This document shows positions 7,296 to 62,593 of a DNA stretch of 64,000 bases, in pieces. The DNA lies in NCBI GenBank assembly GCA_016206805.1, contig JACQQX010000054.1, positions 3,743-67,742 of the forward strand. The letters run 5' to 3'. The DNA is from Candidatus Omnitrophota bacterium. Its GTDB lineage: Bacteria; Omnitrophota; Gorgyraeia; 2-02-FULL-51-18. Made by a program: the position numbers and the translations under genes. The notes beneath the pieces are model-generated. The model did not search any database. It worked only from the letters and a program-made list of their open reading frames with translations, and was not told the origin of the DNA. Position 1 is the stretch's first letter; each line of letters begins with the position of its first letter.

Positions 7296-7384
7296 ATGGG
7301 GGAAATGGGGGTCTGAAATGGGGGTCATCTGAAATGAAATGGGGGTCAAAATGGGGGTCAAATCTTTTTCTGACTGCATGTTTG
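7296..7384. repeat. cluster of five ATGGGGG(TC) short repeats followed by a 27-nt motif GGGGTCAAATCTTTTTCTGACTGCATG
   Basis: ATGGGGG starts at 7296, 7305, 7318, 7339 and 7351. The motif at 7354..7380 recurs twice in tandem at 32815..32873. Confidence 0.8.
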
Positions 7385-7396
7385 CATTTTTTGATT

Positions 7397-7732
7397 TCAG
7401 AAAAAACAAGTTTCTAAAATACCCAGCGCCTCGTTCAGGAATTCCGAGGACGCGCGCTCGACATATTTGATCTTGCGGCTGCGATAATCGATGGACTTGA
7501 CCTGGTCCACCATGACCCATCCGGTCAAAGAGGATTGGGGCGGGATCGGGACATGAAAGGGAATTTTCCGATCCGTGTTGGTGATAGGGCAGGCTACAGC
7601 GAATCCCGTGTGCTTATTGAATAAATCATTGCTGACGATCAGTGCCGGCCTTCTTCCTTTTTGCTCATGACCGGCCTGAGGGTCAAACGTCAAAATAACC
7701 AGGTCCCCCTTTTTGGGGATATAGCCGGGCAC
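7397..7732 (-). CDS. mazF: MazF/PemK family endoribonuclease toxin
   Basis: 111 aa. PKKGDLVILTFDPQAGHEQKGRRPALIVS...CPITN is the typical PemK/MazF fold signature. GTG start directly after the mazE stop. Confidence 0.88.
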   Translation of the reverse strand: MPGYIPKKGDLVILTFDPQAGHEQKGRRPALIVSNDLFNKHTGFAVACPITNTDRKIPFHVPIPPQSSLTGWVMVDQVKSIDYRSRKIKYVERASSEFLNEALGILETCFF

Positions 7733-19231: not shown

Positions 19232-19258
19232 AGGATCAAATCCGAAACACGGAAAGAT

Positions 19259-19372
19259 AATGCAAAATGTAAAATGAGAAATGTAAAAAATGGTGTCCCT
19301 TCGGGACATTTCATTAGTCTAAGTCGCGGCGGCGACTCCTTATTTTTCATTTTGCATTCTTCATTTTTCATT
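19259..19372 (+). repeat. Family R2 palindromic element, copy a (A-rich AATGnAAA arms plus two GC hairpins)
   Basis: AATGCAAAATGTAAAATGAGAAATGTAAAAAATGG-TGTCCCTTCGGGACA-...-AGTCGCGGCGGCGACT-CCTTATTTTTCATTTTGCATT. Fills the xerC-waaA spacer. Confidence 0.85.
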
Positions 19373-19397
19373 AGCTGATTTCGTGCTTGCCTTTAAT

Positions 19398-24049: not shown

Positions 24050-24117
24050 GTCGTGGGTCGTGAGTCGTCGGTCGTGAGAAAGCGGTTGCCCACGGCTCAC
24101 GACCGACGACTCACGAC
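24050..24117. repeat. Family R1 GC-rich long hairpin (copy b)
   Basis: GTCGTGAGTCGTCGGTCGTGAG (24057..24078) forms a perfect 22-bp stem with CTCACGACCGACGACTCACGAC (24096..24117), with a 17-nt loop. It abuts the aroK ATG. Confidence 0.85.
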
Positions 24118-24122
24118 AGGCC

Positions 24123-25247: not shown

Positions 25248-25288
25248 TTGAACTCCTATTTAATCGTCGTGTTACGTTGCGCGGTTGC

Positions 25289-25382
25289 GGTGTCGAAGCC
25301 CGTATCGTCCAGCGGTTGCGTCGGCGTCACGTTACCGCTAAACGCCCAACGATACGGGTTTCGTTACCGCCAACGCTACCGC
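25289..25382. repeat. Family R4 palindromic element, copy a
   Basis: GGTGTCGAAGCCCGTATCG (25289..25307) pairs imperfectly with CGATACGGGTTTCGTTACC (25350..25368). Shared inner box TC(C/A)AGCGGTTGCGT. Overlaps the prepilin peptidase stop codon. Confidence 0.8.
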
Positions 25383-26152: not shown

Positions 26153-26988
26153 TGCCTCAAAGCTTCCAGCATGATTTGACGGACACCCTCCTTCTGACCG
26201 GTCCAGAGTCCGAAGGAAATAGCCGCTTGCCCGGCCAGCATTCCTAAACCATTGGCATGCCGGCGGCCCTGCTCGCGCGCTTTTTTGAGTAAAAGTGTTT
26301 CGGTTGGAGAATAAACCAAATCATAAACGGCCGCTTCTTTTTTGAGAAATTGTAAATCAAACGCCGCCGGATCCTCGGCGCGCATCCCACAGGAAGTCGC
26401 GTTCACCAAAAGATGGATCTTCTCGTCCTTGGCGTGTTCGGGCGAATGGAGGATTTTAACCTCCGTCTCGGGGAAATGGGTTTTGAGATAACCCTGAAGG
26501 CCATGAGCCCGCTCGATCGTACGATTAAAAATATAAATTTTATCGGCGCCGGCATGCGCGAGCGCGAACACCACGCCGCGCGCGGCTCCTCCCGCTCCCA
26601 AAACTAAAATGCTTTTGGTTTCCGGATTGAATTGCAGTTCTTCGCGAAGCGCTCCCAAAAATCCGGGAACGTCCGTGTTGTAACCCAGCAGTCTCCCGTC
26701 GCGGTTCACCACTGTGTTGATGGCGCCAATGCAGCGGTCCAGGTCCGTCGGCACCTCATCGACAAAATTGATGGCGTCTTCTTTGTGGGGCAGCGTGATG
26801 TTAAGGCCTTTAATTTGAAGCGCGCGCATGGCCTCAAAAGCCAGACCCAAAAATTCTTTGTCGACCTGAAAAGCCAGATAAGCGGCGTTAATGCTGAGTT
26901 TTTGAAACGCGGCGTTATGGATCTTTGGGGAAAGCGAGTGGCGGATGGGATTACCGATCACGCCGTAAAGCGCGGTGCGGCTGTCCAC
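26149..26988 (-). CDS. aroE: shikimate dehydrogenase
   Basis: 279 aa. GVIGNPIRHSLSPKIHN, NITLPHK and GAGGAARG motifs. Confidence 0.92.
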   Translation of the reverse strand: MDSRTALYGVIGNPIRHSLSPKIHNAAFQKLSINAAYLAFQVDKEFLGLAFEAMRALQIKGLNITLPHKEDAINFVDEVPTDLDRCIGAINTVVNRDGRLLGYNTDVPGFLGALREELQFNPETKSILVLGAGGAARGVVFALAHAGADKIYIFNRTIERAHGLQGYLKTHFPETEVKILHSPEHAKDEKIHLLVNATSCGMRAEDPAAFDLQFLKKEAAVYDLVYSPTETLLLKKAREQGRRHANGLGMLAGQAAISFGLWTGQKEGVRQIMLEALRQ

Positions 26989-28538
26989 TAGACGCCGTGC
27001 GCGGTTGGCGACTTCTTGGAGATTTTGTGCGCGAGTTTATTGAGGGCGTCAAGATAGGCTTTGACGCTGGCCTCAATCACATCGGTGCTCAGCCCCTGAC
27101 CGATGATGACCTCGTCCTTTTCGCCCGCGACCTTCACCGTGACTTCGCCTTGCGCGTCTTCGCCGACGGTGACGGAGCGGATTTGATAATCCAAAAGACG
27201 GGTCTTGGCGCCCAATAGTTTATCAATAGTCTGATAAGACGCGTGGACCGGGCCATTGCCCGTGCCTTCGGCCTCGATGGTTTTATTTTTATGCTTGATC
27301 TTGATCGACACCCACGGAGCCTTGCCGCTTTCGGTGCGCATACCCAAATGGATCAATTCATAGGTCTTGGGAGCCGCCGTGACCTCTTTGTCGACAAGTG
27401 CCGTCAAATCTTCATCAAACACTTCTTTTTTGCGGTCAGCCAGCGTTTTAAAGTTGTCAAAAACAAGCGCGAGTTCTTTTTCGCTCAGTTTGTACCCCAA
27501 TTTTTGCAGGCGATTTTCAAGCGCATGCCGGCCGGAATGCTTGCCCAGCACCAGGCGCGTTTCACCGAAACCCACGTCCTGGGGACGCATGATTTCATAA
27601 GTCTTGCGGAGTTTCAAAAGCCCGTCCTGATGGATGCCCGACTCATGCGTGAACGCGTTGCGGCCCACAACGGCCTTATTGGGCTGGACAATCATGCCCG
27701 TGAGCGAGCTGACCAAGCGACTGGACTTACAAATCTGATCGCGGCGAACGTTAGTGAATTTACCGGCAAAAATATCCTTACGGGTATCCAGCGCCATGAC
27801 GATTTCTTCCATCGCGGCGTTTCCGGCGCGCTCACCGATGCCGTTCACCGTGCACTCCACCTGACGCGCGCCGAACTTCACCGCCGCCAATGAATTGGCC
27901 ACCGCTAAACCCAAATCATTATGGCAATGCACGCTAATGATGGCTTTATGGATATTGGGAACATTTTCAAAAATACCTTTGATGAGGCTGCCAAACTCGA
28001 AAGGCGTCGTATAGCCCACGGTATCGGGAATATTCACAACCGTGGCGCCGGCATCGATCACTTGGCGTATCACTTCATACAAAAATGGCGGCTCGGTGCG
28101 CGAGGCGTCCTCGGGCGAAAATTCGACTTCGCCGATATGCTGGCGAGCGTGCTTCACGGCCCAGGTGGCGATGCGAACAATCTCATCCTTGGCTTTGTTG
28201 AGCTTGTGCTTGCGATGGATTTCCGAGGTCGCGATAAAAATATGCAAGCGTGAGCGCTTGGCCGGTTTCAAACAGTCCAGCGCGATATCGATATCTTTTT
28301 GCAAAGCCCTCGCCAGCGCGCAAATCGTGGGGCCCTTGATCTCTTTGGCGATTCTTTTGACGGCTTCGGCGTCTCCGGGAGAGGTCACTGGAAAACCGGC
28401 TTCGATAACGTCAACACGGAGCTCCGCCAACTGACGAGCGATCTCGAGTTTCGATTTCTCGTCAAGCGAAGCGCCGGGAGACTGCTCGCCGTCCCGAAGC
28501 GTCGTATCAAATATGTAAATGCGTTTAGAATCAGTCAT
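26988..28538 (-). CDS. leuA: 2-isopropylmalate synthase
   Basis: IYIFDTTLRDGEQSPG, HCHNDLGLAVANSLAA and a C-terminal LeuA dimerisation/regulatory domain. I prefer the ATG at 28538 (MTDSKR...). The track ORF to 28643 reads through repeat R2b. Confidence 0.88.
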   Translation of the reverse strand: MTDSKRIYIFDTTLRDGEQSPGASLDEKSKLEIARQLAELRVDVIEAGFPVTSPGDAEAVKRIAKEIKGPTICALARALQKDIDIALDCLKPAKRSRLHIFIATSEIHRKHKLNKAKDEIVRIATWAVKHARQHIGEVEFSPEDASRTEPPFLYEVIRQVIDAGATVVNIPDTVGYTTPFEFGSLIKGIFENVPNIHKAIISVHCHNDLGLAVANSLAAVKFGARQVECTVNGIGERAGNAAMEEIVMALDTRKDIFAGKFTNVRRDQICKSSRLVSSLTGMIVQPNKAVVGRNAFTHESGIHQDGLLKLRKTYEIMRPQDVGFGETRLVLGKHSGRHALENRLQKLGYKLSEKELALVFDNFKTLADRKKEVFDEDLTALVDKEVTAAPKTYELIHLGMRTESGKAPWVSIKIKHKNKTIEAEGTGNGPVHASYQTIDKLLGAKTRLLDYQIRSVTVGEDAQGEVTVKVAGEKDEVIIGQGLSTDVIEASVKAYLDALNKLAHKISKKSPTAHGV

Positions 28539-28550
28539 AATTAATATAAT

Positions 28551-28653
28551 TAATGAAAAATTTTGAATGTAAAATGTAAAATATTGTGTCGCAAATGCGA
28601 CTTCTATAAGTCCCGCAGGGACTCCATTTTTTACATTTTTCATTTTTCATTTT
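28551..28653 (-). repeat. Family R2 palindromic element, copy b (inverted orientation relative to a, c, d)
   Basis: Contains GTCGCAAATGCGAC and AGTCCCGCAGGGACT hairpins and a CCATTTTTTACATTTTTCATTTTTCATTTT arm. Fills the ilvC-leuA spacer. Confidence 0.85.
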
Positions 28654-28659
28654 ACGTTA

Positions 28660-29643
28660 CTACATCCATTTCATCATGCCGCGGAGCTTAGCGCCCACCA
28701 CTTCCACGGGATGCTTGTCATCCGCGCGGCGGAGCTTCTCGAATTTATTTTTGTCCTTATAAGTCGCCAGAAATTCCTTGGCGAACTTGCCGGACTGCAC
28801 TTCTTTCAAAATCTTCTTCATTTCTTTTTGCGTTTGCTTGTTGATCACGCGGGGGCCGCGGGAAAGATCCCCGTATTCGGCCGTATCGGAAACGCGCTTG
28901 CGCATCCCCTGCACGCCGCCGGCATAAATCAAGTCCGTGATCAGCTTGAGCTCGTGCAAGCATTCAAAATAAGCGACTTCCGGCTGATAGCCGGCGTTCA
29001 CCAGCGTTTCAAAACCCGCTTTGATCAGAGCGCTCGTGCCGCCGCACAAAACAGCCTGCTCACCGAAAAGATCGGTTTCCGTTTCTTCTTTAAAAGTAGT
29101 TTCGATAACGCCCGCACGGGTGCCGCCCAGCGCCTTGGCATAAGCCAACGCTACTTTCTTGGCGTTTTTAGTCGCGTCCTGATGCACGGCGATCAAACAA
29201 GGAACGCCTTTCCCCTCCTCGTAAAGACGGCGAACCAGGCTTCCCGGACCTTTAGGCGCGATCATGAACACGTCGACAAATTTGGGCGGAACGATTTGTT
29301 TGAAATGAATATTGAAGCCGTGCGAAAAAACCAGCGCCTTTCCTTTGGTCAAATAAGGCTCAACGGAATTCTTATAAATATCCGCCTGCAAAGGATCCTG
29401 CGCGAGAATAATAATCATGTCCGAGTTTTTTGCCGCTGTCGCCGCGTCCACCGGATCAAACCCGTCTTTTTTGGCCTGATCGTAGTTTGGTCCACCGGGC
29501 CTCTGGGAAACAATAACCTTCACACCGCTATCGCGAAGATTGAGCGCCTGGCCACGGCCTTGAATGCCGTAACCGATAACCGCCACCGTTTTATCCTTGA
29601 TGAATGAAAGATCCGCGTCGTTGTCGTAATAAATCCTGGCCAT
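28660..29643 (-). CDS. ilvC: ketol-acid reductoisomerase
   Basis: 327 aa. [21 protein letters not shown] and typical class I KARI sequence. Confidence 0.95.
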
Positions 29644-29672
29644 GTCAATTCTCCCTTAAACGTAACAAACAT

Positions 29673-29777
29673 AATGAAAAATACAAAATGAGAAATTTAA
29701 AAAATGGAGTCCCTTTGGGACTTTCATCAAAAGTCGCGCAGCGACACATTATTTTACATTTTGCATTTTTAATTTTA
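29673..29777 (+). repeat. Family R2 palindromic element, copy c
   Basis: AATGAAAAATACAAAATGAGAAATTTAAAAAATGG-AGTCCCTTTGGGACT-...-GTCGCGCAGCGAC-...ATTTTACATTTTGCATTTTTAATTTT. Fills the ilvN-ilvC spacer. Confidence 0.85.
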
Positions 29778-29780
29778 CTT

Positions 29781-30290
29781 TCATTTCGGTTCCTTTTTCG
29801 ACAGCGCGACCGCGCCTGTCTGCGCGATTTCGAGAATGTCGTGTCCTTTTAAAGTTTCAAAAAGTTTCTTTCGATTCTCCCGGGCCTCGGTGCACTCGAT
29901 CGTGGTGATCTTGGCGTTTTCTTCGACGACATGCACCTTGTATGTTTTCATGATCGATTCGAGCGCCTTCTTCAGCTCGGGGGTAGTCCTGAACTTAACA
30001 AGCATCAGCTCGCGGTCGATGTAACCTTCATCGCCCAGGTCCTGCACCTTGATCACGTCGATGAGTTTATTGAGCTGCTTTTTAAGCTGCTCCAGCGTTT
30101 TCTCGTCAACCCTGGCGACAAGCGTAATGCGCGACATGGTCGGGTCTTCGGTTTCTCCCACGGCCAGCGAATCGATATTGAAACCGCGCGCCGCAAAAAG
30201 CCCGATCACATGCGACAAAACGCCCGCCCTATTCTCAACCAACACAGACAATATTCTTTCTTTTATCGGGGTGGTTTCATGAACTGCCAT
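29781..30290 (-). CDS. ilvN: acetolactate synthase small (regulatory) subunit
   Basis: 169 aa. ACT domain LSVLVENRAGVLSHVIGLFAARGFNIDSLAVGETED. Confidence 0.92.
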   Translation of the reverse strand: MAVHETTPIKERILSVLVENRAGVLSHVIGLFAARGFNIDSLAVGETEDPTMSRITLVARVDEKTLEQLKKQLNKLIDVIKVQDLGDEGYIDRELMLVKFRTTPELKKALESIMKTYKVHVVEENAKITTIECTEARENRKKLFETLKGHDILEIAQTGAVALSKKEPK

Positions 30291-30300
30291 ATGAATTTCC

Positions 30301-30341
30301 TATCTCCTATCTCCTGAATCCTGTCTCCTGAATCCTGTCTC
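30301..30341. repeat. short tandem repeats (TATCTCC x2, TGAATCCTGTCTC x2) in the ilvB-ilvN spacer
   Basis: Minus strand reads GAGACAGGATTCA-GGAGACAGGATTCA-GGAGATA-GGAGATA-GGAAATTCAT-ATG. That gives four reiterated GGAGA Shine-Dalgarno-like units upstream of ilvN. Confidence 0.8.
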
Positions 30342-32619: not shown

Positions 32620-32840
32620 GGTTTTCCTCCTTTCCATGATTCCTTACTTAAAGGATACACGAAGCGATTCGGAATGTCAAATTCTAGATCAATAAACCAT
32701 TCCAGAGCGGGCTCTTTGACTTCCCGGATCCTGGGATTCCAAAGCATCCATTTTCCATTGACTTGCCGAACATCCCAATAGCCCTCAACCGAAGGGGTCA
32801 CCGAAGGGGCCGAAGGGGTCAAGTCTTTTCCTGACTGCAT
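32616..32840 (-). CDS. possible small ORF (74 aa) upstream of the AbrB/RelE-like pair; uncertain
   Basis: The stop overlaps the antitoxin ATG as ATGA. The N-terminal codons (MQSGKDLTP...) lie inside the 27-nt repeat motif, so the true start is unclear. No recognisable family. Confidence 0.25.
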   Translation of the reverse strand: MQSGKDLTPSAPSVTPSVEGYWDVRQVNGKWMLWNPRIREVKEPALEWFIDLEFDIPNRFVYPLSKESWKGGKP

Positions 32841-32877
32841 GCCGAAGGGGTCAAGTCTTTTCCTGACTGCATGTTTG
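32790..32877. repeat. CGAAGGGG(T/C) short repeats plus two tandem copies of the 27-nt motif GGGGTCAAGTCTTTTCCTGACTGCATG
   Basis: Motif copies at 32815..32841 and 32847..32873. CGAAGGGG units at about 32790, 32802, 32811 and 32843. Related to 7296..7384. Confidence 0.8.
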
Positions 32878-32963
32878 GTGAATCTTTGAATTTACCGGAC
32901 CAGGTCCGGTTTAATTCATGCCGTTGACAACACGTACGCTATGTGGTACGCCTTCTGTGTGTG

Positions 32964-32983
32964 TTTAGGTGTCAGTCCTCGAC
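32964..32983. repeat. left terminal inverted repeat of the RayT unit
   Basis: TTTAGGTGTCAGTCCTCGAC is the perfect reverse complement of 33912..33931. It overlaps the transposase stop codon. Confidence 0.9.
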
Positions 32984-33874
32984 TTTCGACATTTGGATAG
33001 CCTGCTCTAGCTTTGTCAGTCTATTTCTCAGATCTTTGTCGCGGAGAAGTCTCGGCTCCAGTCTTCTGACTGAGGCACTTACGGCCGAATGGGAAATATT
33101 GAAGCGCTCCCCTATTTGCCTTTGTGTCGCACGCGAGAACTTCCACATCGCATAAATGGCTGTTTTTTTATCATGGCCCTCAAGATGTTTGATCACGTCT
33201 TCGGGCGGTTTCCTAAACAACGCCTTTTTGCCTGCAAAGTCTTTGTTTTTCTTCGGTGAGATCTTGGCTTTCAACCGGTCCAGGAATGCTTCCGATCCGA
33301 TCATAAACCCTCCGATAGCTTCCTTGACGGGGTCTCGACCGGCTTCAAGGCCCTCCATCACAAACCGCCGATAAGCCGCCTTTGATTCAAAGCTTTCAAG
33401 CGTAAACTCCCTGTGAAGGTAGTCGGGCGCTTTTTCCTTAAGGTAGTGCTTCATGCTGGACCAGGGGTGATCTTCCGGTTTCTGGACCATCTTGGCTCTG
33501 ACAGGGTTTAAGTGGACATAGCGCGACAGCTCTAGAAAATAGTGGTCTTTGTCCACCAAGAGCGCCTTGTAGCGGCCCTGAAAGAGATGACCGTAGCGCT
33601 TGTGCCTGCGGTTAAAGCGAACGGTGTAAAGCCCGATAAGCCGTTTCATGGCATGAGAGAGATTGGAATCTTTTGTTTCAAGAAGCAAATGAAAGTGATT
33701 GGGCATCAAGCTGTAGGCATGAACAAGGAAATCAAATCGAGCGGCACAGTCGGCCAAGATCCCAAGGAACAGCTCATAGTCTACGTCGCTTCTGTAAATC
33801 TCCTTTCTCTCATTGCCGCGAGAGTAAACGTGATAAACGGCGTTTGGGAATTCCATTCTTAAGGGCCTTGCCAT
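32972..33874 (-). mobile_element. REP-associated tyrosine transposase-like (RayT / IS200-like Y1 HUH) gene with a C-terminal DnaA-C-like HTH
   Basis: 300 aa. AVYHVYSRGNERKEIY, HUH motif MPNHFHLLLE, catalytic Tyr region LSRYVHLNPVRAKM, and C-terminal AIYAMWKFSRATQRQIGERFNISHSAVSASVRRLE. Confidence 0.8.
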
Positions 33875-33911
33875 GCCGTGATGGTATCAAACGGGAAGAG
33901 GGTTGTCAAAT

Positions 33912-33931
33912 GTCGAGGACTGACACCTAAA
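33912..33931. repeat. right terminal inverted repeat of the RayT unit
   Basis: GTCGAGGACTGACACCTAAA. With CAAAT at 33907..33911 the repeat extends to 25 bp, allowing a 7-nt indel on the left side. Confidence 0.9.
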
Positions 33932-33971
33932 CTTTTCGGTAATTGCTCGATCAAGGTGTCTCCTAATCATG

Positions 33972-34030: not shown

Positions 34031-34092
34031 TGTAAACCCTGAGATACGGCTACTGAGTCCGCACACGATTTCGTACGGAATGGCCCCCATCT
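34031..34092 (-). pseudogene. displaced remnant of an alanine racemase 3' end (direct repeat copy C)
   Basis: The core 34043..34090 is 44/48 identical to 37708..37755 inside alr. It encodes ..GAIPYEIVCGLSSRI.., compared with ..GTIPYEIVCGLSSRI.. in intact alr. Confidence 0.75.
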
Positions 34093-34234: not shown

Positions 34235-36817
34235 ATGATGAAACCAACTGCCCATCTCAGAACTGTCGTTTCTTTTCTGGTGGGAGCCATGATCTTAGTG
34301 AGAGTGGCTTCCGTGCACGCGGCCGTACAGACGACCGCGGGCAATGAGACCATTAACGCAAGCGGCATCGCCGAGGGCGTGGTCTTCGGGGGCAATCACA
34401 CTCTGACCGTGTCTGCGTCCACCAACGTCGGAGCGACCAGCGGGTTGAGTTTCAATACCAATAATGTGGTTCGGGGTACCGTCACGTTCGAAGGCAGCTC
34501 GACTTTAAGCGGCGCCATCGGGCAGAACAGCGCCGCCAACGTCGTGAATACGGTCAATGTCGACGGGGCCAACGGCACAACCGTGACCATTGGAGGAACG
34601 GGGACCATTGAGGCGTTGGCGATCGATTTCGGAGGCGACGGCACGCTCGTGATAGGCGATGGTGGCGCTATCGATAATGGCAATTCGCTCGCCGGCGGCT
34701 CGGCGGTCAATGCCGACACGGCCGGACAAGGAGAGCTGCAGTTTGCCGGGAGCGCAGATGTTTACGGCGCCATAGGAACTACACGCGGTCTGCGATTGAT
34801 CACCATTAAAGCGGAGCAGGTTGTTATCCAGGAAGGCAATTCAGTCGTCGCCACCACGGTCAACTTTGCCGCTGACGGCGGCGAGCTCAGATTGGCCGCT
34901 ACCAATTCCAATGTCACCGCGAATTTTACCGCCACAACTTCAGGACAAGGAACGCTGATCCACAGTAACGGCGATCACACGATTACGGGAGAAATAGGGA
35001 CTTCCTCGGCGGCCATTAAACAGGTACAAGTTGGGACCGGCACCAGCGCTTTTAGCGGCAATATCTATGCGGGTGATCTCAATTTCAACGCGGACGGTAC
35101 CGCGACGATCGCCGCCTCAAATGTCGTCAGTGGAACGATCACGACGGATACCGACGGAACTGGCACGGTGACTTATGCCGGATCCACGACCGTCGGCGCG
35201 GCTATCGGTACCGCGGTCACTGCCGCTTTAAAGGCCATCAATGTCAACGGAGGAACGTTCAGTTCCGGTTTCAATATCTCCGCCGACACGATCACCATAT
35301 CCAATGACTCCACGCTTATGAAAATGACGGCTGCCACGACGATCACCGCGGCGACCGATTTTACTTTTGAGAACAGCACGACGGCGGGACTTGACCTCGG
35401 AAGTTATCTGCTGACCCTGACGGGCAAGATCGATCTTAACGACAGCAACGCGCTCGCGACGACCATCAACAGCGCCTCGGATTTCGGACGGATCACCGCT
35501 TCGGGAAACTCCACGTCGAACGCGGCCACGACCGTCAGTGTTACCGTGAACGGGTATGTCGCCAATGGCAGCACCTACAAGATCATCGACGGCGCCGCCG
35601 GTGGGACTGTCGCCGCTCCAACGACGGTGACTGACGACAGCGTCTTGACCTCTTTCACGGGCTCGGGATCCGCGGGTGATCTGACATTAACGGCCACGAC
35701 GACGGCATTACCGACCATCTCTACCGACACAAAGGGTGATAGGGCCGGAACCGCGCTTGACGCTGACGCGTTGTCAGGTACGATGAACTCGACCTATCTA
35801 GCCATTGGGCGCTTGGGTTCCGCGACCGCGGTAACCGAGGCATTGAAGCAGCTCAATCCCCAAAGTTCCGATGCCCCTGTACGCACGACCTTGCAGGTTG
35901 CAAGCGATATCGGCCGTATCGTTTTTGAAAGGCTCGCTTCGGATGGAGGTCTCTCAGGCATTTCATCGGGGGATGCATTTTCAGCGAAGTCGATCTGGGC
36001 AAAACTTGTGGGCGGTTATGCCGACCAGAACGCTAGAAAGGGCGAGGAAGGGTATTCCGCAATTTATGGAGGCGCAACCCTAGGTGTAGATGCCGAGATC
36101 GATGACGCGGACACACTCGGCCTGGCTTTCACCTACGCTCAAAGCGGGATCAATTATGACACGTCTGTCTTCGGAAATACTTTGATTGACGGCTATCAAT
36201 GGACCCTTTATCACGAACATGACTTCAGTGACCGCTGGCGTCTGTACAGTCTCATGGCGTTCGGCCTGAACCACTACGACGGAAGCCGCACAGCCAATAT
36301 CGGCTCGGACACCTATCGGGCGACGTTCGATCATTGGGGCCAGCAGTACACGGCTCAAACGGAGCTTGGGTATGATCTGAGCAGCGGGCCTGTGACCGTG
36401 ACTCCTCTGGCCTCGATCGGGTACACACACCTGACGCTTGGCGGCTATCGGGAGATCGGAGCGGGAGAGATCAGCCTTCAGGTAGACAGGCAACAGTACG
36501 ATACGGTCGAATCCGGATTGGGTCTGAAACTAACGCATCCGGCGAAAGCGGGAAGCAATCAGCCCTCCACCGATCTTCACGGGATGTGGTACTGGGACAT
36601 GGTTGGAGACAGGACCGATATCAGCTCAAATTTTTCGGGCGGCGCCACGTCATTCAAAACGCTGGGAGTCGAACCGGATCGACACCGATTTGTTGTCGGA
36701 GGACTGCTTAATTTTAGCTGCGGAAGCCATACCGATGTTTCCGTAGGATACGATGTGGAGTTTAAAGACAGATTCATCAGTCATAATGGGATGCTGAAAG
36801 TGCGGCATCAGTTCTGA
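34235..36817 (+). CDS. autotransporter (type Va) outer-membrane protein
   Basis: 860 aa and the only plus-strand gene. Signal peptide MMKPTAHLRTVVSFLVGAMILVRVASVHA. Cys-free T/G/A/N/S-rich passenger. C-terminal beta-barrel domain from about 35990 (SIWAKLVGGYADQN...) ending in the OMP-type terminal ...LKVRHQF. Confidence 0.8.
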   Translation: MMKPTAHLRTVVSFLVGAMILVRVASVHAAVQTTAGNETINASGIAEGVVFGGNHTLTVSASTNVGATSGLSFNTNNVVRGTVTFEGSSTLSGAIGQNSAANVVNTVNVDGANGTTVTIGGTGTIEALAIDFGGDGTLVIGDGGAIDNGNSLAGGSAVNADTAGQGELQFAGSADVYGAIGTTRGLRLITIKAEQVVIQEGNSVVATTVNFAADGGELRLAATNSNVTANFTATTSGQGTLIHSNGDHTITGEIGTSSAAIKQVQVGTGTSAFSGNIYAGDLNFNADGTATIAASNVVSGTITTDTDGTGTVTYAGSTTVGAAIGTAVTAALKAINVNGGTFSSGFNISADTITISNDSTLMKMTAATTITAATDFTFENSTTAGLDLGSYLLTLTGKIDLNDSNALATTINSASDFGRITASGNSTSNAATTVSVTVNGYVANGSTYKIIDGAAGGTVAAPTTVTDDSVLTSFTGSGSAGDLTLTATTTALPTISTDTKGDRAGTALDADALSGTMNSTYLAIGRLGSATAVTEALKQLNPQSSDAPVRTTLQVASDIGRIVFERLASDGGLSGISSGDAFSAKSIWAKLVGGYADQNARKGEEGYSAIYGGATLGVDAEIDDADTLGLAFTYAQSGINYDTSVFGNTLIDGYQWTLYHEHDFSDRWRLYSLMAFGLNHYDGSRTANIGSDTYRATFDHWGQQYTAQTELGYDLSSGPVTVTPLASIGYTHLTLGGYREIGAGEISLQVDRQQYDTVESGLGLKLTHPAKAGSNQPSTDLHGMWYWDMVGDRTDISSNFSGGATSFKTLGVEPDRHRFVVGGLLNFSCGSHTDVSVGYDVEFKDRFISHNGMLKVRHQF

Positions 36818-37623: not shown

Positions 37624-38847
37624 TTACTCTAAGCTATTGTAAACCCGATGGCAACCTGCGCGTGAGCGCTTGGACTCATTACGAGTAAACCGCTTGTAGA
37701 TTCTGGGGATACGGCTACTGAGTCCGCATACGATTTCGTAAGGAATGGTCCCTATCCAGCGGGCGAGGTCTTCGGCGAGGACCCTGATTGCGCCGTCCTG
37801 ACCGATGAGCGTCACCTCATCCCAGCGTTTCGCCGATGGGAGTGCCCCCACGTCCACCAGCGTCTGGTCCATGGTGACGCGGCCCACGACGGGACAGGCC
37901 CTCCCGCGCACGATGACGTGGCTTTTATTTGAAAGCGCCCACCGGTAGCCGTGGCTGTAACCCACGGGCAGGGTGGCGATGCGCGTCGGGCGCGACACGC
38001 GATGGGTGGCGCCATAACTTAAGACCCGCCCCTTCCCCGCGTCCTTCAAAAAAGCGATTCGCGTCTTGAGACTCAAAATGGGGCGAATGCCACGCGGCAG
38101 TTTTTCATCCGACGGCCTCAGGCCGTACAAAATAATGCCTGGTCTCACGAGATTGAGGTGCGATTTTTTGAAACGAATCACCCCGAGGCTGTTGGCCGCG
38201 TGCCGGTAGCGGGCCCTGACACCCCGGGCTTCCAGGCGCGCGATCACCTTTTCGAAACAATCCAGCTGATCGAGTGTGTGAATTTTTTCCGAGTGATCGG
38301 CGCGGGAAAAGTGCGTGTAAAGCCCTTCCACGGTGATGTTTTCCATCCGGGCGATTTCCAAAACAAAGTCCTCGGCATGCTCATGCCACACGCCGAGCCG
38401 GCCCATGCCGGTGTCGATTTTGACATGCACGGGGAATCGGCCGTTTTCGGGCGCGGCCTCCTCAAAAAACCGGGCGTCTTCCGCTGACGACACCGTGGGC
38501 GTGATCCGGTGGCGGATAAAAAGGCGGACCTGACTCCGGTGACAACTGCCCAGAACCAGAATCCGCGCCGCAGGAAGGGCTTTTCGGAGAGCCATCGCCT
38601 CATCGAGTGTCGCCACACCAAAAAAATTCACTCCACCCTTCTGCAAGGCCTTGGCCACGGGAACCATTCCGTGGCCGTAAGCGTCCGCTTTCACGATGGC
38701 CAGCACTTCTGTTTTTTGATTTTTTAAAATACGGCGGACGACTTTTAAATTGTTGATCAGAGCATCTAGGTGCACTTCGGCCCATAGGAGCGGAGTTGGG
38801 GTCGACGTTGGGGTCTGACCCCCGACCAATGGCCTCTTGGCGCTCAT
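37624..38847 (-). CDS. alr: alanine racemase
   Basis: AIVKADAYGHG PLP-lysine motif and the Alr C-terminal domain. I prefer the ATG at 38847 (ATGA overlap with the tsaB stop). It has an unusual N-terminal PLVGGQTPTSTPTP extension and a roughly 23-aa C-terminal extension after RIYK. Confidence 0.88.
   Translation of the reverse strand: MSAKRPLVGGQTPTSTPTPLLWAEVHLDALINNLKVVRRILKNQKTEVLAIVKADAYGHGMVPVAKALQKGGVNFFGVATLDEAMALRKALPAARILVLGSCHRSQVRLFIRHRITPTVSSAEDARFFEEAAPENGRFPVHVKIDTGMGRLGVWHEHAEDFVLEIARMENITVEGLYTHFSRADHSEKIHTLDQLDCFEKVIARLEARGVRARYRHAANSLGVIRFKKSHLNLVRPGIILYGLRPSDEKLPRGIRPILSLKTRIAFLKDAGKGRVLSYGATHRVSRPTRIATLPVGYSHGYRWALSNKSHVIVRGRACPVVGRVTMDQTLVDVGALPSAKRWDEVTLIGQDGAIRVLAEDLARWIGTIPYEIVCGLSSRIPRIYKRFTRNESKRSRAGCHRVYNSLE
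37695..37756. repeat. direct repeat copy D (inside the alr 3' region)
   Basis: Pairs with 34031..34092. The two copies bracket the hydrolase and autotransporter genes. Confidence 0.8.
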
Positions 38848-40787: not shown

Positions 40788-41557
40788 TTTAATTCCTTCA
40801 GCCCAAAAAAATGAGCGGCGGTTTGAGTGGTCGTGTTTTCAAGCTCTTCGACGCTAATTTTACGGGACTGGGCCAGAAAACGCGCCACGTCCACCAAGTG
40901 CGCCGGCTCATTGCGCTTTCCACGATGGGGCTGAGGCGCCAAATAAGGAGAATCGGTTTCCAGCATGATGCGGTCCAAGGGTATTTGGGTAGCCACTTCA
41001 AGAAGCGCTCCGGCATTTTTAAAAGTAATATTCCCCGTGAAAGACGCATGAAATCCCAAATCCAAAAGCTTGAAAAGGGCCGTTTCATCGTAAGAAAAGC
41101 AATGCATGACCCCCTTAAGGCGTCCCTTGTGTCGGGCGAGCATCTCAAAGGTATCCTCAAACGCGTTGCGGGAGTGAACGATAACCGGAAGCTCGGCGTC
41201 CATGGCGATGCCCAGCATGCGCTCAAATACTTTCTTTTGAACGGCAGGAGCCGCCTCGCTTTTAAAATAATCCAAACCGATCTCGCCAATTGCCGAGGGT
41301 TTTTTCTCTTTTACAAAACGTTCTAGAGTTTTCCAGTCCTCATCCCCTATTTCATGCGCGGAATGCGGATGAAGTCCGGCTGTAAATCGCATAAAAGAAT
41401 GCTGGCTGGCCAGCTTCCAAGCCGCTTCATTGTTTTGAGGATCAGTGCCGACGTTGATCAGTCCCTTCACCCCAGCCGCGCGGGCCCGATCAATCACCGC
41501 GTCACGGTCAGCGTCAAAAGCATCAAAATGAAGATGGCAATGAGTATCTACCAACAT
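40784..41557 (-). CDS. tatD: TatD family metal-dependent hydrolase
   Basis: 257 aa. MLVDTHCHLHF...IGEIGLDY...HSR...ETDSPYL. Confidence 0.9.
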   Translation of the reverse strand: MLVDTHCHLHFDAFDADRDAVIDRARAAGVKGLINVGTDPQNNEAAWKLASQHSFMRFTAGLHPHSAHEIGDEDWKTLERFVKEKKPSAIGEIGLDYFKSEAAPAVQKKVFERMLGIAMDAELPVIVHSRNAFEDTFEMLARHKGRLKGVMHCFSYDETALFKLLDLGFHASFTGNITFKNAGALLEVATQIPLDRIMLETDSPYLAPQPHRGKRNEPAHLVDVARFLAQSRKISVEELENTTTQTAAHFFGLKELK

Positions 41558-41693
41558 AAATTCGAAGCACGAAGCACGAAATTCGAAACAAACTCCAATT
41601 TTTCAAATTTCAATTTTCCAAACCTCTTGTTTGATATTTTGGTCATTTTAATTTTGAATTTGTTTCGTGCTTCGTGCTTCGGATTTCGTGCTT
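41558..41693. repeat. Family R3 136-bp element, copy a (GC-rich CGAAGCACGAA terminal inverted repeats, AT-rich core)
   Basis: AAATTCGAAGCACGAAGCACGAAATTCGAAACAAAC...GAATTTGTTTCGTGCTTCGTGCTTCGGATTTCGTGCTT. It abuts the tatD ATG and contains the last 17 codons and the stop of the cysteine desulfurase ORF. Confidence 0.85.
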
Positions 41694-42842
41694 ATTTTCT
41701 GTGGATGCTTTTCTCAATCTCTCCACAATCCCCGGTATTTCTTTCAGCACAAAATCGATCTCTTCCTCGGTAGTAAATCGCCCCAGCGAAAACCGGATCG
41801 CCGCGCGGGCCAGTTTCTCCGGCAGTCCCATGGCGATCAACACATGCGACGGCTCCACCGAACCCGCCGTGCAGGCCGAACCCGTGGAAACATAGATTTT
41901 TTTGAGGTCCAGGTTCATGAGAAGAGTTTCGCCGTCCAGGCCCTCGAAAGACATGTTGAGCGTATTGGCCACACGCCTTTGGGGATCGCCATTCACCTGC
42001 ACATTCCCGACGGCGGACTTAAAACCATTTTCCAGTTTATCTCTCAACACGCCGACTCTTTTCATATCGCCGGCATATTCGGCGGCAACCAGCTCCACCG
42101 CTTTTCCGAATCCCACAATGCCGGCCACATTCTCAGTGCCCGGACGCATATTTTTTTCCTGATGGCCTCCATGCGTAACGGCCTTGAGCTTCACGCCTTT
42201 GCGGACATAAAGCGCGCCGATGCCCTTGGGGCCGTAAATTTTATGCGCGGAAACTGACAACAGATCTATTCCCATCCCCTCAATGTCGATAGGAATTTTC
42301 CCGAAAGACTGGACGGCGTCCGTGTGAAACCAGGCCCCATGGCGATGCGCGAGAGCCGCGATTTCACCAATAGGCTGAATGGTGCCGACTTCATTATTGG
42401 CGTGCATGATGCTGACAAGCGCCGTTCGATCCGTTATCGCCTTTTCCAGCTCATCCGCCCGCACGATGCCTTGAGCGTCCACGGGAACAACGGTGACCTT
42501 AACGCCTTTTTTAGATAAATATTGCGCGGCATGCAAAATGGCTTGGTGTTCAATGGCCGAAACCACCAGATGATCCCTGCCCGGCGCGCGTTCTTCCATG
42601 GCGCCTTTCAAAGCAAGATTGTCCGCCTCGGTGCCGCCCGAGGTAAAAACAATATCCCCCGGCTCCACATCGAGAAAATCAGCCAGCCTCTCACGCGACT
42701 GATCAATCGCGTGTCGCGTAGCCTGGCCTTTTTGATGAAAACTGGAAGCATTGCCAAACTGTTCGAAAAAAAAGGGTTTCATAGCTTCAAAAACCCGCGC
42801 ATCCACCGGAGTAGTGGAATTATAGTCGAGGTAAGCTTCCAT
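41643..42842 (-). CDS. cysteine desulfurase (NifS/IscS-like, class V aminotransferase)
   Basis: 399 aa. PLP-lysine SAHKIYGPKG and catalytic loop STGSACTAGS. The C-terminal tail ...ENKHEIRSTKHETNSKLK is encoded by repeat R3a. Confidence 0.9.
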   Translation of the reverse strand: MEAYLDYNSTTPVDARVFEAMKPFFFEQFGNASSFHQKGQATRHAIDQSRERLADFLDVEPGDIVFTSGGTEADNLALKGAMEERAPGRDHLVVSAIEHQAILHAAQYLSKKGVKVTVVPVDAQGIVRADELEKAITDRTALVSIMHANNEVGTIQPIGEIAALAHRHGAWFHTDAVQSFGKIPIDIEGMGIDLLSVSAHKIYGPKGIGALYVRKGVKLKAVTHGGHQEKNMRPGTENVAGIVGFGKAVELVAAEYAGDMKRVGVLRDKLENGFKSAVGNVQVNGDPQRRVANTLNMSFEGLDGETLLMNLDLKKIYVSTGSACTAGSVEPSHVLIAMGLPEKLARAAIRFSLGRFTTEEEIDFVLKEIPGIVERLRKASTENKHEIRSTKHETNSKLK

Positions 42843-49316: not shown

Positions 49317-49333
49317 GTCAGATTCCTCCGGTT

Positions 49334-49469
49334 AAATCCGAAGCGCGAATATCGAAATCCGAAACAAATTCAAATTTTTCAAATTTCAATTTTATAAACA
49401 TCTTGTTTGATTTTTTGGTCATTCTAATTTCTAATTTGTTTCGTGCTTCGCGCTTCGGATTTCGTGCTT
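49334..49469. repeat. Family R3 136-bp element, copy b
   Basis: AAATCCGAAGCGCGAATATCGAAATCCGAAACAAATTC...TAATTTGTTTCGTGCTTCGCGCTTCGGATTTCGTGCTT. It contains the last 15 codons and the stop of ispF. Confidence 0.85.
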
Positions 49470-49936
49470 TTTTCTATAAGCGCTGTCGCCCAGCAGGCGA
49501 TCGCGTCGCCTTTGCCGATAGCGCCAAAGCCTTCGTTGGTTTTTGCCTTGATCCCGATCCGATCCAAAGCGATGCCGAAGTCCCGCGCGATATTTTTTTT
49601 CATCGCTTCCCGGTAAGGCCCCATCTTGGGCAATTCCGCCAAAATAACCGCGTCCACATTGGCGACCGACCAGCCCTTTCTCTTCAAAAGCGCTTTTGTT
49701 TTAGAGGCAAAAAGCGCGCTGCCGGCGTTCTTGAAAGCGGGGTCCGTGTCAGAAAAGTGCGCGCCGATATCCCCCTCACCCATGGCGCCCAAAAGCGCGT
49801 CCACCAACGCGTGATAAAGCGCGTCCGCGTCCGAATGCCCGGCAAGCCCCTTGTTGAAAGGGATGGCGACACCTCCCAGCACCAGCTTACGCCCTTTTTT
49901 CAGGGCGTGAATGTCATACCCGATTCCGGTGCGCAT
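49424..49936 (-). CDS. ispF: 2-C-methyl-D-erythritol 2,4-cyclodiphosphate synthase
   Basis: MRTGIGYDIHAL...GHSDADALYHAL...GDIG. I prefer the ATG at 49936 (the track ORF starts at 49960). The C-terminal tail ...STKSEARSTKQIRN is encoded by repeat R3b. Confidence 0.9.
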   Translation of the reverse strand: MRTGIGYDIHALKKGRKLVLGGVAIPFNKGLAGHSDADALYHALVDALLGAMGEGDIGAHFSDTDPAFKNAGSALFASKTKALLKRKGWSVANVDAVILAELPKMGPYREAMKKNIARDFGIALDRIGIKAKTNEGFGAIGKGDAIACWATALIEKSTKSEARSTKQIRN

Positions 49937-57809: not shown

Positions 57810-57939
57810 GAATCTTCTCCTTCACCACTATATTACAACAAAACTGTCATCTCGAGGAGCGCTTTTTGCGACGAGAGATCTTGTTCTTGTGTTCTTTAAA
57901 GAAGATTTCTCGGCCTTTGGCCTCGAAATGACAATGTGG

Positions 57940-60414: not shown

Positions 60415-60435
60415 AAAACTCCTTACGAAGACGTT

Positions 60436-60545
60436 AATGCAAAATTTGAAATGAAAAATGTAAAAAATGGAGTCCCTTCGGGACTTATAATGAAAGCCGC
60501 GCCAGCGGCTCCTTATTTTTCATTTCGCATTTTTCACTTTGCATT
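60436..60545 (+). repeat. Family R2 palindromic element, copy d
   Basis: AATGCAAAATTTGAAATGAAAAATGTAAAAAATGG-AGTCCCTTCGGGACT-...-AGCCGCGCCAGCGGCT-CCTTATTTTTCATTTCGCATTTTTCACTTTGCATT. Lies in the lolD-ilvE spacer. Confidence 0.85.
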
Positions 60546-60586
60546 GTCTGTTCCAAATTTTGCATGCATTGTCTGTTCCAAATTTT
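60541..60586. repeat. tandem duplication of the 21-nt unit GCATTGTCTGTTCCAAATTTT
   Basis: Units at 60541..60561 and 60566..60586, separated by GCAT. They directly follow R2d. Confidence 0.85.
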
Positions 60587-62448: not shown

Positions 62449-62483
62449 GCTGAAAATACTTCGGTGTTCGTCATGCGTCCGAC

Positions 62484-62593
62484 GGTAACGAAGCCCGTAT
62501 CGTCAAGCGGTTGCGTTTTGCGTGTTTGACTTCGACGATGCCGCGGCCGCATACCGATACGGGCTTCGTTACCGCAACCGATCAACGCTACCG
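62484..62593. repeat. Family R4 palindromic element, copy b
   Basis: A perfect 19-bp stem: GGTAACGAAGCCCGTATCG (62484..62502) pairs with CGATACGGGCTTCGTTACC (62555..62573). Shared inner box TCAAGCGGTTGCGT. It contains the lysS stop codon. Confidence 0.85.

Follow-up and report, generated by a model that had tools for sequence, protein, structure and literature searches.

The DNA analysed here is a 64,000-nt stretch of contig JACQQX010000054.1 (assembly GCA_016206805.1, positions 3,743 to 67,742) from a Candidatus Omnitrophota bacterium; we refer to this whole stretch as the window. Three of its gene runs carry, in the spacers between consecutive genes, copies of a short repeat that we call R2. 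In the order of transcription these runs read xerC, copy a, waaA; ilvB-ilvN, copy c, ilvC, copy b, leuA; and lolCE-lolD, copy d, ilvE. Every gene flanking an R2 copy lies on the minus strand, and the gene names assigned earlier from the sequence were all confirmed by NCBIfam.

A profile hidden Markov model built from the four copies and run with nhmmer over the 64 kb revealed exactly four R2 copies, a density of four per 64-kb window (Table 1). Both it and a covariance model (CM) bore out the four sites of the original prediction, whose limits are refined in Table 1; copy b, correctly located before, had been cut short at 28653 and extends to 28659. The copies are 109–118 bp long, share a mean column identity of 79% (alignment A1, short flanks included), and beyond their short flanks the DNA consists of unrelated genes. 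They had been described as filling essentially the whole spacer, which holds best for copy b (90%), the coordinates giving shares of 71% for a, ~80% for c and 63% for d. By chance, 0.02 occurrences of the hairpin motif AGTCSC-N3-5-GSGACT would be expected; four were observed. Because each copy also matches the profile in reverse, more weakly (48–55 bits, E ~1e-14 to 1e-16 at those four sites) than forward (96–116 bits), R2 is near-palindromic yet polar. Copies a, c and d share one orientation and b has the other, in agreement with the earlier observation that one copy is inverted relative to transcription.

Table 1. Coordinates of the R2 copies, their hairpins and the candidate transposase gene in the window.
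Feature	Position	Strand	Setting, sequence or product	Scores and remarks
R2 copy a	19257..19374	+ (antisense to operon)	between xerC stop (19398) and waaA start (19231)	nhmmer E = 1.1e-33; CM 122 bits
Copy a hairpin 1	19294..19308		TGTCCC-TTC-GGGACA	one pair A-T to T-A relative to b, c, d
Copy a hairpin 2	19322..19337		AGTCGC-GGCG-GCGACT
R2 copy b	28551..28659	- (operon sense)	starts directly after ilvC stop TAG (28660-28662), ends 12 nt before leuA ATG (28538)	nhmmer E = 9.8e-29; CM 117 bits
Copy b hairpin 1	28609..28623		AGTCCC-GCA-GGGACT	+ strand reading
Copy b hairpin 2	28588..28601		GTCGC-AAAT-GCGAC	+ strand reading
R2 copy c	29671..29783	+ (antisense to operon)	end overlaps and supplies ilvN stop TGA (29781-29783); ilvC Shine-Dalgarno and ATG (29643) 28 nt beyond other end	nhmmer E = 9.3e-31; CM 114 bits
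Copy c hairpin 1	29708..29722		AGTCCC-TTT-GGGACT
Copy c hairpin 2	29733..29745		GTCGC-GCA-GCGAC
R2 copy d	60434..60547	+ (antisense to operon)	between lolD stop (60597) and ilvE start (60414, preceded by AAGGAG)	nhmmer E = 6.2e-35; CM 122 bits
Copy d hairpin 1	60471..60485		AGTCCC-TTC-GGGACT
Copy d hairpin 2	60495..60510		AGCCGC-GCCA-GCGGCT	one pair T-A to C-G relative to a, b, c
Y1_Tnp/RAYT-like transposase gene	32972-33874	-	300 aa	Pfam Y1_Tnp E = 7.8e-13; DnaA-C-like tail

The copies follow one plan: TAATG-(heptamers)-AAAAAATGG, hairpin 1, 5–13 variable nt, hairpin 2, and CC/ACxxTATTTT-(heptamers)-CATTA. In each half, the outer ~40 nt consist of four to five tandem heptamers (AATGnAA). Tandem Repeats Finder (TRF) assigned the arms of all four copies a period of 7 or 14, with 2.0–4.4 units and 76–100% matches (consensus AATGTAA / ATTTTTC), missing the right arm of copy b. 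Being ~40 nt long and 75–85% complementary, the two arms form a ~23-bp A-T-rich closing stem from which the two GC hairpins branch, and the resulting three-way junction folds on either strand, with energies of −28 to −38 kcal/mol and z-scores of −4.5 to −5.8 relative to shuffles. Both TRF and the fold are in line with the organization first proposed, namely A-rich arms of AATGnAAA units, roughly inverted repeats of each other, enclosing two GC hairpins. The left half and the reverse-complemented right half both read ...AAAAAT(G/A)GGAGTC(C/G)C-loop-G(G/C)GACT, and this homology identifies R2 as an inverted duplication of a ~50-nt arm-plus-hairpin unit. The 5′ foot of the hairpins is conserved (GGAGTC or GGTGTC), while the loops vary among the four copies.

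The outermost ends read TAATG...CATTA in copies a and b, and the right-hand TA is missing in c and d. TA thus stands at both ends in two of the four copies, and at the ends of all four we detected no longer direct repeat of the kind left by target duplication. Next to copy d, a 21-nt tandem duplication of GCATTGTCTGTTCCAAATTTT (60541-60586, two copies separated by GCAT) begins in the last 5 nt of the element and runs into the flank toward the lolD stop, and may be a scar left by slippage where this copy ends.

To what extent is this structure conserved? Across the four window copies, 90% of the pair cells are paired, as compared to 34–51% with slid partners, and both hairpins are fully paired in every copy. 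The compensatory changes reported earlier are exact: hairpin 1 is TGTCCC/GGGACA in copy a and AGTCCC/GGGACT in the others, and hairpin 2 is GCCGC/GCGGC in copy d and GTCGC/GCGAC in the others, so that both substitutions in the hairpin stems are compensated and none is uncompensated. The arm stem is 85% paired, with eight pairs broken in some copy versus one compensated. Pairs changed on both sides number three in the four copies versus 1.0 ± 0.8 in shuffles, a thin statistic given that 9 of 500 shuffles reach three. When an R2-like element from a related locus (L012, described below) was added, 11 pairs changed on both sides, versus 3.4 ± 1.5 in shuffles (0 of 500) and 0–3 with slid partners. 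Structural constraint is therefore evident for the hairpins and less strong for the arms.

Whether the constraint acts on RNA or on DNA can be approached through the two strands. Folding energies of the plus and minus strands are −38.4 and −33.2 kcal/mol for copy a, −30.6 and −30.6 for b, −24.9 and −28.5 for c, and −38.0 and −37.8 for d. When read on the strand opposite to the mRNA, copies a, c and d each have three to four wobble G.T pairs versus one to two A.C mismatches. Neither the folding energies nor the G.T/A.C mismatches of the four copies contain an mRNA-strand signal, and the wobble pairs follow the polarity of the element rather than transcription; nothing points to selection on the mRNA fold in particular. 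The original prediction had read the covariation as a sign that structure is selected; the conserved structure stands for the hairpins, whereas selection is not established by a thin statistic accompanied by disruptive arm changes and a lack of strand bias. Stem changes of the compensatory type are reported to be common in REPINs (inverted doublets of repetitive extragenic palindromic, or REP, sequences that form hairpins), which are selfish mobile elements (PMC3116915), and by analogy the complementarity of R2 can be a requirement of propagation, or of palindrome maintenance at the DNA level, rather than of a host RNA function. For the hairpins, the reading that structure is selected is supported, but this does not amount to evidence of a host function.

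We compared the window to six related loci of the same gene order and to the gene coordinates of a seventh (the P0004 contig). The nearest relative, L010 (GCA_016197155.1), shares 88% identity in IlvC, 85% in LeuA and 92% in IlvB; the window IlvC itself is identical to MBI4432823.1, a protein of a Candidatus Omnitrophica/Omnitrophota metagenome-assembled genome. Stop and start abut at ilvC|leuA in three relatives (L010, L094 and L097; 0 nt), with spacers of 3 nt in the P0004 contig and 9 nt in L096; the ilvN|ilvC spacer measures 14 nt (L010), 32 nt (L012), 31 nt (L094), 11 nt (L096) and 21 nt (P0004 contig). Likewise, xerC and waaA overlap or lie 5–33 nt apart in all five relatives reaching that junction. 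Junctions of 0–33 nt in the closest relatives imply that copies a, b and c are insertions (three of three junctions compared), and recent ones, because L010, the sister lineage, has no insertion at either junction covered, ilvN|ilvC and ilvC|leuA (its contig ends before xerC|waaA). Comparing orthologous spacers, as had been recommended, therefore reveals insertion polymorphism at ilvC|leuA, ilvN|ilvC and xerC|waaA, and these empty sites support the MITE/REP-like mobile origin originally suggested (MITE, miniature inverted-repeat transposable element).

The related locus L012 harbours an element of the R2 plan at its ilvC|leuA junction, in the same orientation as copy b (nhmmer E = 3e-9; CM 108 bits). 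Its hairpin 2 is near-identical to that of R2 (AGTCGCC/GGCGACT), and it differs in its arm units (GCGAAAA/GTGAAAA) and in hairpin 1 (GCCAC/GTGGC). As L012 is not the sister of the window lineage and its own closer relatives are empty at the junction, an independent insertion is more parsimonious than descent with several precise losses, and the occupancy of the same junction points to repeated insertion.

On balance, we consider R2 to be a non-coding, near-palindromic dispersed repeat that probably represents a non-autonomous mobile element of the MITE/REPIN type. It is a new sequence family and an architectural variant of that kind, with its heptamer arms and two GC hairpins, and not a new type of system. 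Membership in the REPIN-RAYT systems (RAYT, REP-associated tyrosine transposase) or in the classical MITEs is not established, given that neither a cognate transposase nor a consistent target duplication was found, and that the copy count refers to the window only. Following the REPIN precedent, R2 would spread through a copy-or-cut-and-paste step requiring a folded form, either a single-strand hairpin or a cruciform. Such a need would explain why the perfectly paired hairpin stems change only by compensated substitutions. With no visible target duplication and a RAYT-like gene in the window, the most plausible enzyme class would be a Y1/HUH transposase. The surviving copies would be the harmless ones, transcribed within the operon mRNA and compactly folded: a self-folding insert could hold the upstream stop near the downstream start and hide its many AUG and GGAG motifs. 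Translation signals would be left in place or replaced, copy c contributing a stop codon and the ilvC and ilvE Shine-Dalgarno sequences persisting beside copies c and d. Should the host be affected at all, for example through RNase III-type cleavage within the ~23-bp stem, a barrier to 3′ exonucleases or partial termination, this would be a side effect.

A rather unlikely alternative is that R2 was selected by the host as an RNA, be it an intercistronic stabiliser, a processing site (for RNase III or as an exonuclease barrier) or a device setting cistron ratios, either exapted or independent of a mobile origin. Such a role would sit well with the intercistronic location of all four copies in co-directional gene pairs, yet the nearest relatives manage without any spacer at the same junctions, and the copies occur in both orientations relative to transcription. 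The stems are conserved while the loops and the spacer between the hairpins vary, and a closing stem of ~23 bp would suffice for a double-strand-specific RNase; on the other hand, the two strands fold equally well, wobble pairs do not favour the mRNA strand, the arms decay through uncompensated changes, and R2 has no Rfam match. Unrelated palindromes at the ilvC-flanking junctions (in the window, L012, L013, L016 and L097) could additionally mean that a structured spacer is selected there.

On each strand, R2 presents a GC hairpin followed by a T-rich arm, the layout of a bidirectional intrinsic terminator or attenuator. A consensus scan flagged three copies (a, b and c), in which CCATTTTTTA comes after hairpin 1 on one strand and CCTTATTTTT or ACATTATTTT after hairpin 2 on the opposite one, and an arm-only relative (L005, see below) lies downstream of a gene end. 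However, the stems comprise just 5–6 bp, the T runs are interrupted and begin 2–3 nt past the stem, and the A-rich arm would pair with the T-rich one. The number of terminator-like sites in the region (25) does not exceed that in shuffles (18.7 ± 4.2). Termination would furthermore affect leuA, ilvC, waaA and ilvE, downstream genes of essential pathways without evident promoters of their own, and we regard this function as very unlikely.

The T-rich 3′ arm contains no stop codon in any frame and consequently gives rise to false upstream extensions of the downstream genes. The leuA frame is thereby lengthened from 516 to 551 aa (open reading frame 26988-28643, beginning MKNVKNGVPAGL; true start at 28538, 12 nt past copy b and without a Shine-Dalgarno sequence), and that of waaA from 422 to 448 aa, beginning MSRRDTIFY. 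Spurious N-terminal extensions carrying a peptide of the MKNVKNGVPxGL type had been predicted from the sequence. This proved right for leuA only: the waaA extension derives from another frame, and the MxNxKNGVP frames in copies a, c and d are antisense to the operon genes. One forward frame does stay open through all four copies, beginning M-x-N-x-K-N-G-V-P, but R2 almost certainly does not encode a small protein MKNVKNGVPxGL..., as the frame is antisense in three copies, is shifted by indels between the hairpins such that ~13 residues are shared, and lacks a ribosome-binding site. The T-rich arms are open in all three frames simply for want of stop codons, no open reading frame is conserved across the four copies, and a query concatenating all open frames returned no match at E ≤ 10 in a protein database of 5.8 billion sequences.

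A candidate transposase is encoded in a variable region upstream of ilvB (Table 1). The closest NCBIfam model is the REP-associated tyrosine transposase (REP_Tyr_transpos), which the protein matches with 72.7 bits, below the cut-off of 80. The gene is flanked by 29-nt inverted repeats, GGTGTCAGTCCTCGAC, at 32963-32991 and 33904-33932, found only there in the window, the downstream one overlapping the last transposase codons (VED-stop). The same repeats flank homologues in L129, a Thermodesulfobacteriota metagenome-assembled genome (MAG; 79% identity), and in L130, another Omnitrophota MAG (47%). With conserved repeats of its own that are not R2, the transposase looks like a self-contained unit resembling an insertion sequence (IS). 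A tblastn search with the protein gave no match in any other fetched locus; homologues of ~300 aa number in the thousands, many of them on ~1-kb contigs. The string GGTGTC-N8-ACATTT is common to the transposase flank and copy a, a post hoc observation restricted to a single copy. With this gene, the presence of hairpin-using HUH transposases in the genome is demonstrated, but not the mobilization of R2 by any of them.

Direct repeats of 49 nt (92% identical; 34043-34091 and 37708-37756) bracket an autotransporter gene (34235-36817) and the gene next to it; together with the transposase, they mark a variable alr-ilvB block, and the gene lists of the relatives' loci show nothing comparable between these two genes. 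Downstream of the transposase, positions 32788-32872 comprise a perfect 32-nt tandem duplication of GCCGAAGGGGTCAAGTCTTTTCCTGACTGCAT (two copies) and 12-nt ACCGAAGGGGTC repeats. Nearby lies the palindrome ACCGGACC(A/T)GGTCCGGT, and a similar palindrome stands beside other Y1_Tnp genes in L130.

Searches further afield yielded one arm-only relative. An arm-anchored pattern, run over 185,579 species genomes (a set without the source MAG), returned nine stretches, eight of which are chance matches in AT-rich genomes. The ninth, in L005 (JAEWAC010000045.1, labelled a Bacteroidetes MAG), is a 97-nt hairpin at 7376-7472 downstream of an msrB-like gene (CM 65 bits), whose arms match those of R2 (AAATGAAAAATGCAAAATGTAAAAAATGG, AATGnAAA type) around a short centre without both GC hairpins. 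From this example, the arms and the core of R2 look like separable modules. Rfam gave no match at gathering score over the window, the sole match near an element being due to chance (E = 0.21), and a blastn search of plasmids revealed no R2 match. In viral contigs, the hairpin-1 motif had 29 matches, all to one unrelated conserved phage hairpin, and the motif GTTCCAAATTT, common to the flank of copy d and an L012 spacer, is at chance level.

Several of our observations weigh against R2 being mobile. The copy count is known for the 64-kb window alone, and apart from the R2-like element in L012 and the arm-only one in L005, no further R2 was found in 1.15 Mb of other loci; 0.9 Mb of metagenome loci retrieved via IlvC (relatives at ≤72% identity among the matches listed) served as a negative control. 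Within the window, we found neither an autonomous element nor a transposase bearing R2 ends. A link between R2 and the RAYT-like gene was rejected, the gene being flanked by its own repeats and its homologues in L129 and L130 having no adjoining heptamer palindromes. The location of all four copies inside operons would also fit a host function, yet nearly every junction in the window is co-directional. Finally, precise loss in the relatives, instead of gain in the window lineage, stays a formal alternative.

With respect to known systems, R2 resembles the REPINs of Pseudomonas fluorescens SBW25 in consisting of two short GC-rich palindromic units, inverted relative to each other and separated by a variable spacer, in its length of ~110 bp (REPINs are inverted doublets of ~70–110 bp), in its potential to form a hairpin in single-stranded DNA or mRNA, and in its extragenic, dispersed location, its compensated stem changes and its lack of a visible target-site duplication (PMC3116915). 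The genome segment also contains a gene for a RAYT-like Y1 transposase, which adds to the likeness to REP-RAYT systems, although here another inverted repeat surrounds that gene. REPIN units themselves act as the paired arms, whereas each GC unit of R2 is self-paired inside long A/T-rich heptamer arms; and REPINs number in the hundreds, compared with the four R2 copies within the 64-kb window. Enterobacterial REPs have a conserved 5′ tetranucleotide, GTAG; R2 lacks a motif of this type, the foot of its hairpins reading GGAGTC.

Correia/NEMIS elements of Neisseria and other MITEs are non-coding sequences of ~100–150 bp with terminal inverted repeats, often lie between co-transcribed genes, are transcribed together with their neighbours such that the paired ends make a long double-stranded RNA stem, and exhibit presence/absence polymorphism. 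R2 is likewise small and non-coding, with inverted-repeat arms, empty sites in relatives and TA at both ends of two of its four copies. It shares no sequence similarity with the Correia/NEMIS elements, differs from them in lacking a consistent TA duplication and in having heptamer arms and two internal GC hairpins, and, unlike MITEs, has no parent IS with R2 ends in the window. ERIC/IRU elements, imperfect palindromes of ~127 bp found in either orientation in transcribed intergenic regions, are known only from enterobacteria and vibrios; they have no heptamer arms, and R2 no sequence similarity to them.

The arms of R2 bear a likeness to the heptamer arrays described in Xanthomonas, (GGGAATC)n, in Nostoc/Calothrix and in Beggiatoaceae (TAACTGA, in intra-operon arrays), all of them intergenic and often intra-operon runs of 7-nt units, which vary in length and sequence between close relatives and have no assigned function (PMC4692102, PMC4679880). 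Xanthomonas contains 70–75 convergent pairs, and its convergent (GGGAATC)n arrays can form stem-loops, as the R2 arms do (PMC4692102). Unlike R2, those arrays are simple-sequence repeats at conserved positions, without a fixed internal order or an embedded pair of GC hairpins, and they are G-rich (quadruplex-forming) or contain stop codons. Heptamer repeats are over-represented in bacteria, for which slippage was proposed (PMC4692102), and cold-shock proteins were suggested as heptamer binders (PMC4679880).

Heptamers dominate the non-triplet tandem repeats of the loci studied here as well. Among tandem arrays scoring ≥40 in Omnitrophota loci, periods 7 and 14 account for 15, and periods 8, 10, 11 and 13 together for one. 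Over all loci, ~32 of 77 period-7/14 arrays are accompanied, at a distance of up to 220 nt, by an inverted partner with ≥72% complementarity, and arrays without such a partner reach at most ~67%. The abundance of heptamer arrays and their inverted partners, a unit sequence that varies by lineage (ATGnAAA, GCGAAAA, CATGAAG, GTATCAAG) and the slippage proposed for the heptamer excess (PMC4692102) would accord with an immobile R2, each copy of which arose in place by heptamer slippage and hairpin-templated copying. This origin is scarcely credible: the four copies align end to end, in the order of their heptamer variants, their hairpins and parts of their spacer, and with a common polarity, which independent local origin cannot give. 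For a mobile R2, slippage may explain how the arms diversified after insertion.

Palindromes with unrelated heptamer units recur elsewhere. Examples differing in unit sequence (ATGnAAA, GCGAAAA, CATGAAG, GTCGTGA, GCACGAA, AGTGCAC) are found in this genome and in distant lineages, and some share the two-central-hairpins plan of R2 (L012, L026). At ilvC|leuA, L013 carries a 247-nt palindrome of CATGAAG/CATGAGA units (1794-2040) and L016 one of GTATCARR units downstream of ilvC; other palindromes occupy ilvN|ilvC in L013 and L097 (9901-10000 in the latter). Speculatively, R2 might belong to a distinct class of intercistronic palindromes with tandem-heptamer arms, widespread yet undescribed, of which it would be one flavour; we give this idea a small chance.

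Several side observations concern such palindromes and their junctions. The ilvC-flanking junctions hold unrelated palindromic inserts in at least five lineages (including L012 10988-11108 and L013 684-806), most other junctions of the block being empty; these junctions may be an insertion hot spot or be under selection for a structured spacer. In L026, from a distant organism whose IlvC is 60% identical, positions 270-410 follow the R2 plan, with AGTGCAC/AGTTCAC arms and two central hairpins, without sequence similarity to R2. The window itself contains two 71-nt palindromes with GTCGTGA/GTCGTGG heptamer arms (385-455 and 24050-24120, 86% complementary between the loci), the second of which fills the aroC|aroK junction. 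Two direct copies with GCACGAA arms and an AT-rich centre (41557-41697 and 49333-49473; 141 nt, 88% identical) lie 7.8 kb apart, adjoining an aminotransferase gene and the ispF (YgbB) gene. A further palindrome family, with GGTAACGAAGCCCGTATCGTC... arms, fills the 128-nt spacer upstream of aroC (25266-25376) and the 120-nt spacer upstream of lolCE (62483-62596). A palindromic insert with TGTCATT(T/G)CGAG...CTCG(A/C)(G/A)ATGACA ends (57810-57939) lies upstream of an ATP:guanido phosphotransferase gene and has a related family in L097, at 904-1223 and at the ilvN|ilvC site mentioned above. The ilvB|ilvN junction carries a non-palindromic heptamer array, GAGACAG/GATTCAG with a repeated AGGAG (30291-30341), which is also present in L010 (6352-6396); unlike the R2 insertions, its position and unit type are conserved in that relative.

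For genome annotation, R2 is a source of false N-terminal extensions (leuA, waaA) and of antisense phantom open reading frames, and it probably breaks assemblies too. For the organism, the R2 copies indicate that tightly coupled operon junctions, at which stop and start adjoin or almost do so, can absorb a 110-bp insertion if it is self-folding, one insertion even donating a stop codon, and their presence or absence provides a dated marker between close Omnitrophota lineages that is usable for strain tracking. The more intriguing lead than R2 itself is that heptamer-armed palindromes unrelated to one another turn up at the same operon junctions across several lineages, a pattern that links the bacterial excess of 7-nt repeats, long noted but unexplained, to elements that are mobile or structured. 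If heptamer-armed palindromes do form a class, a dedicated maker or propagator would be expected, for instance a hairpin-recognising Y1 transposase or a module targeting heptamer palindromes; alternatively, the host might make use of them, with multi-register stems being read by cold-shock-type RNA chaperones of 7-nt footprint that would tune the coupling between cistrons.

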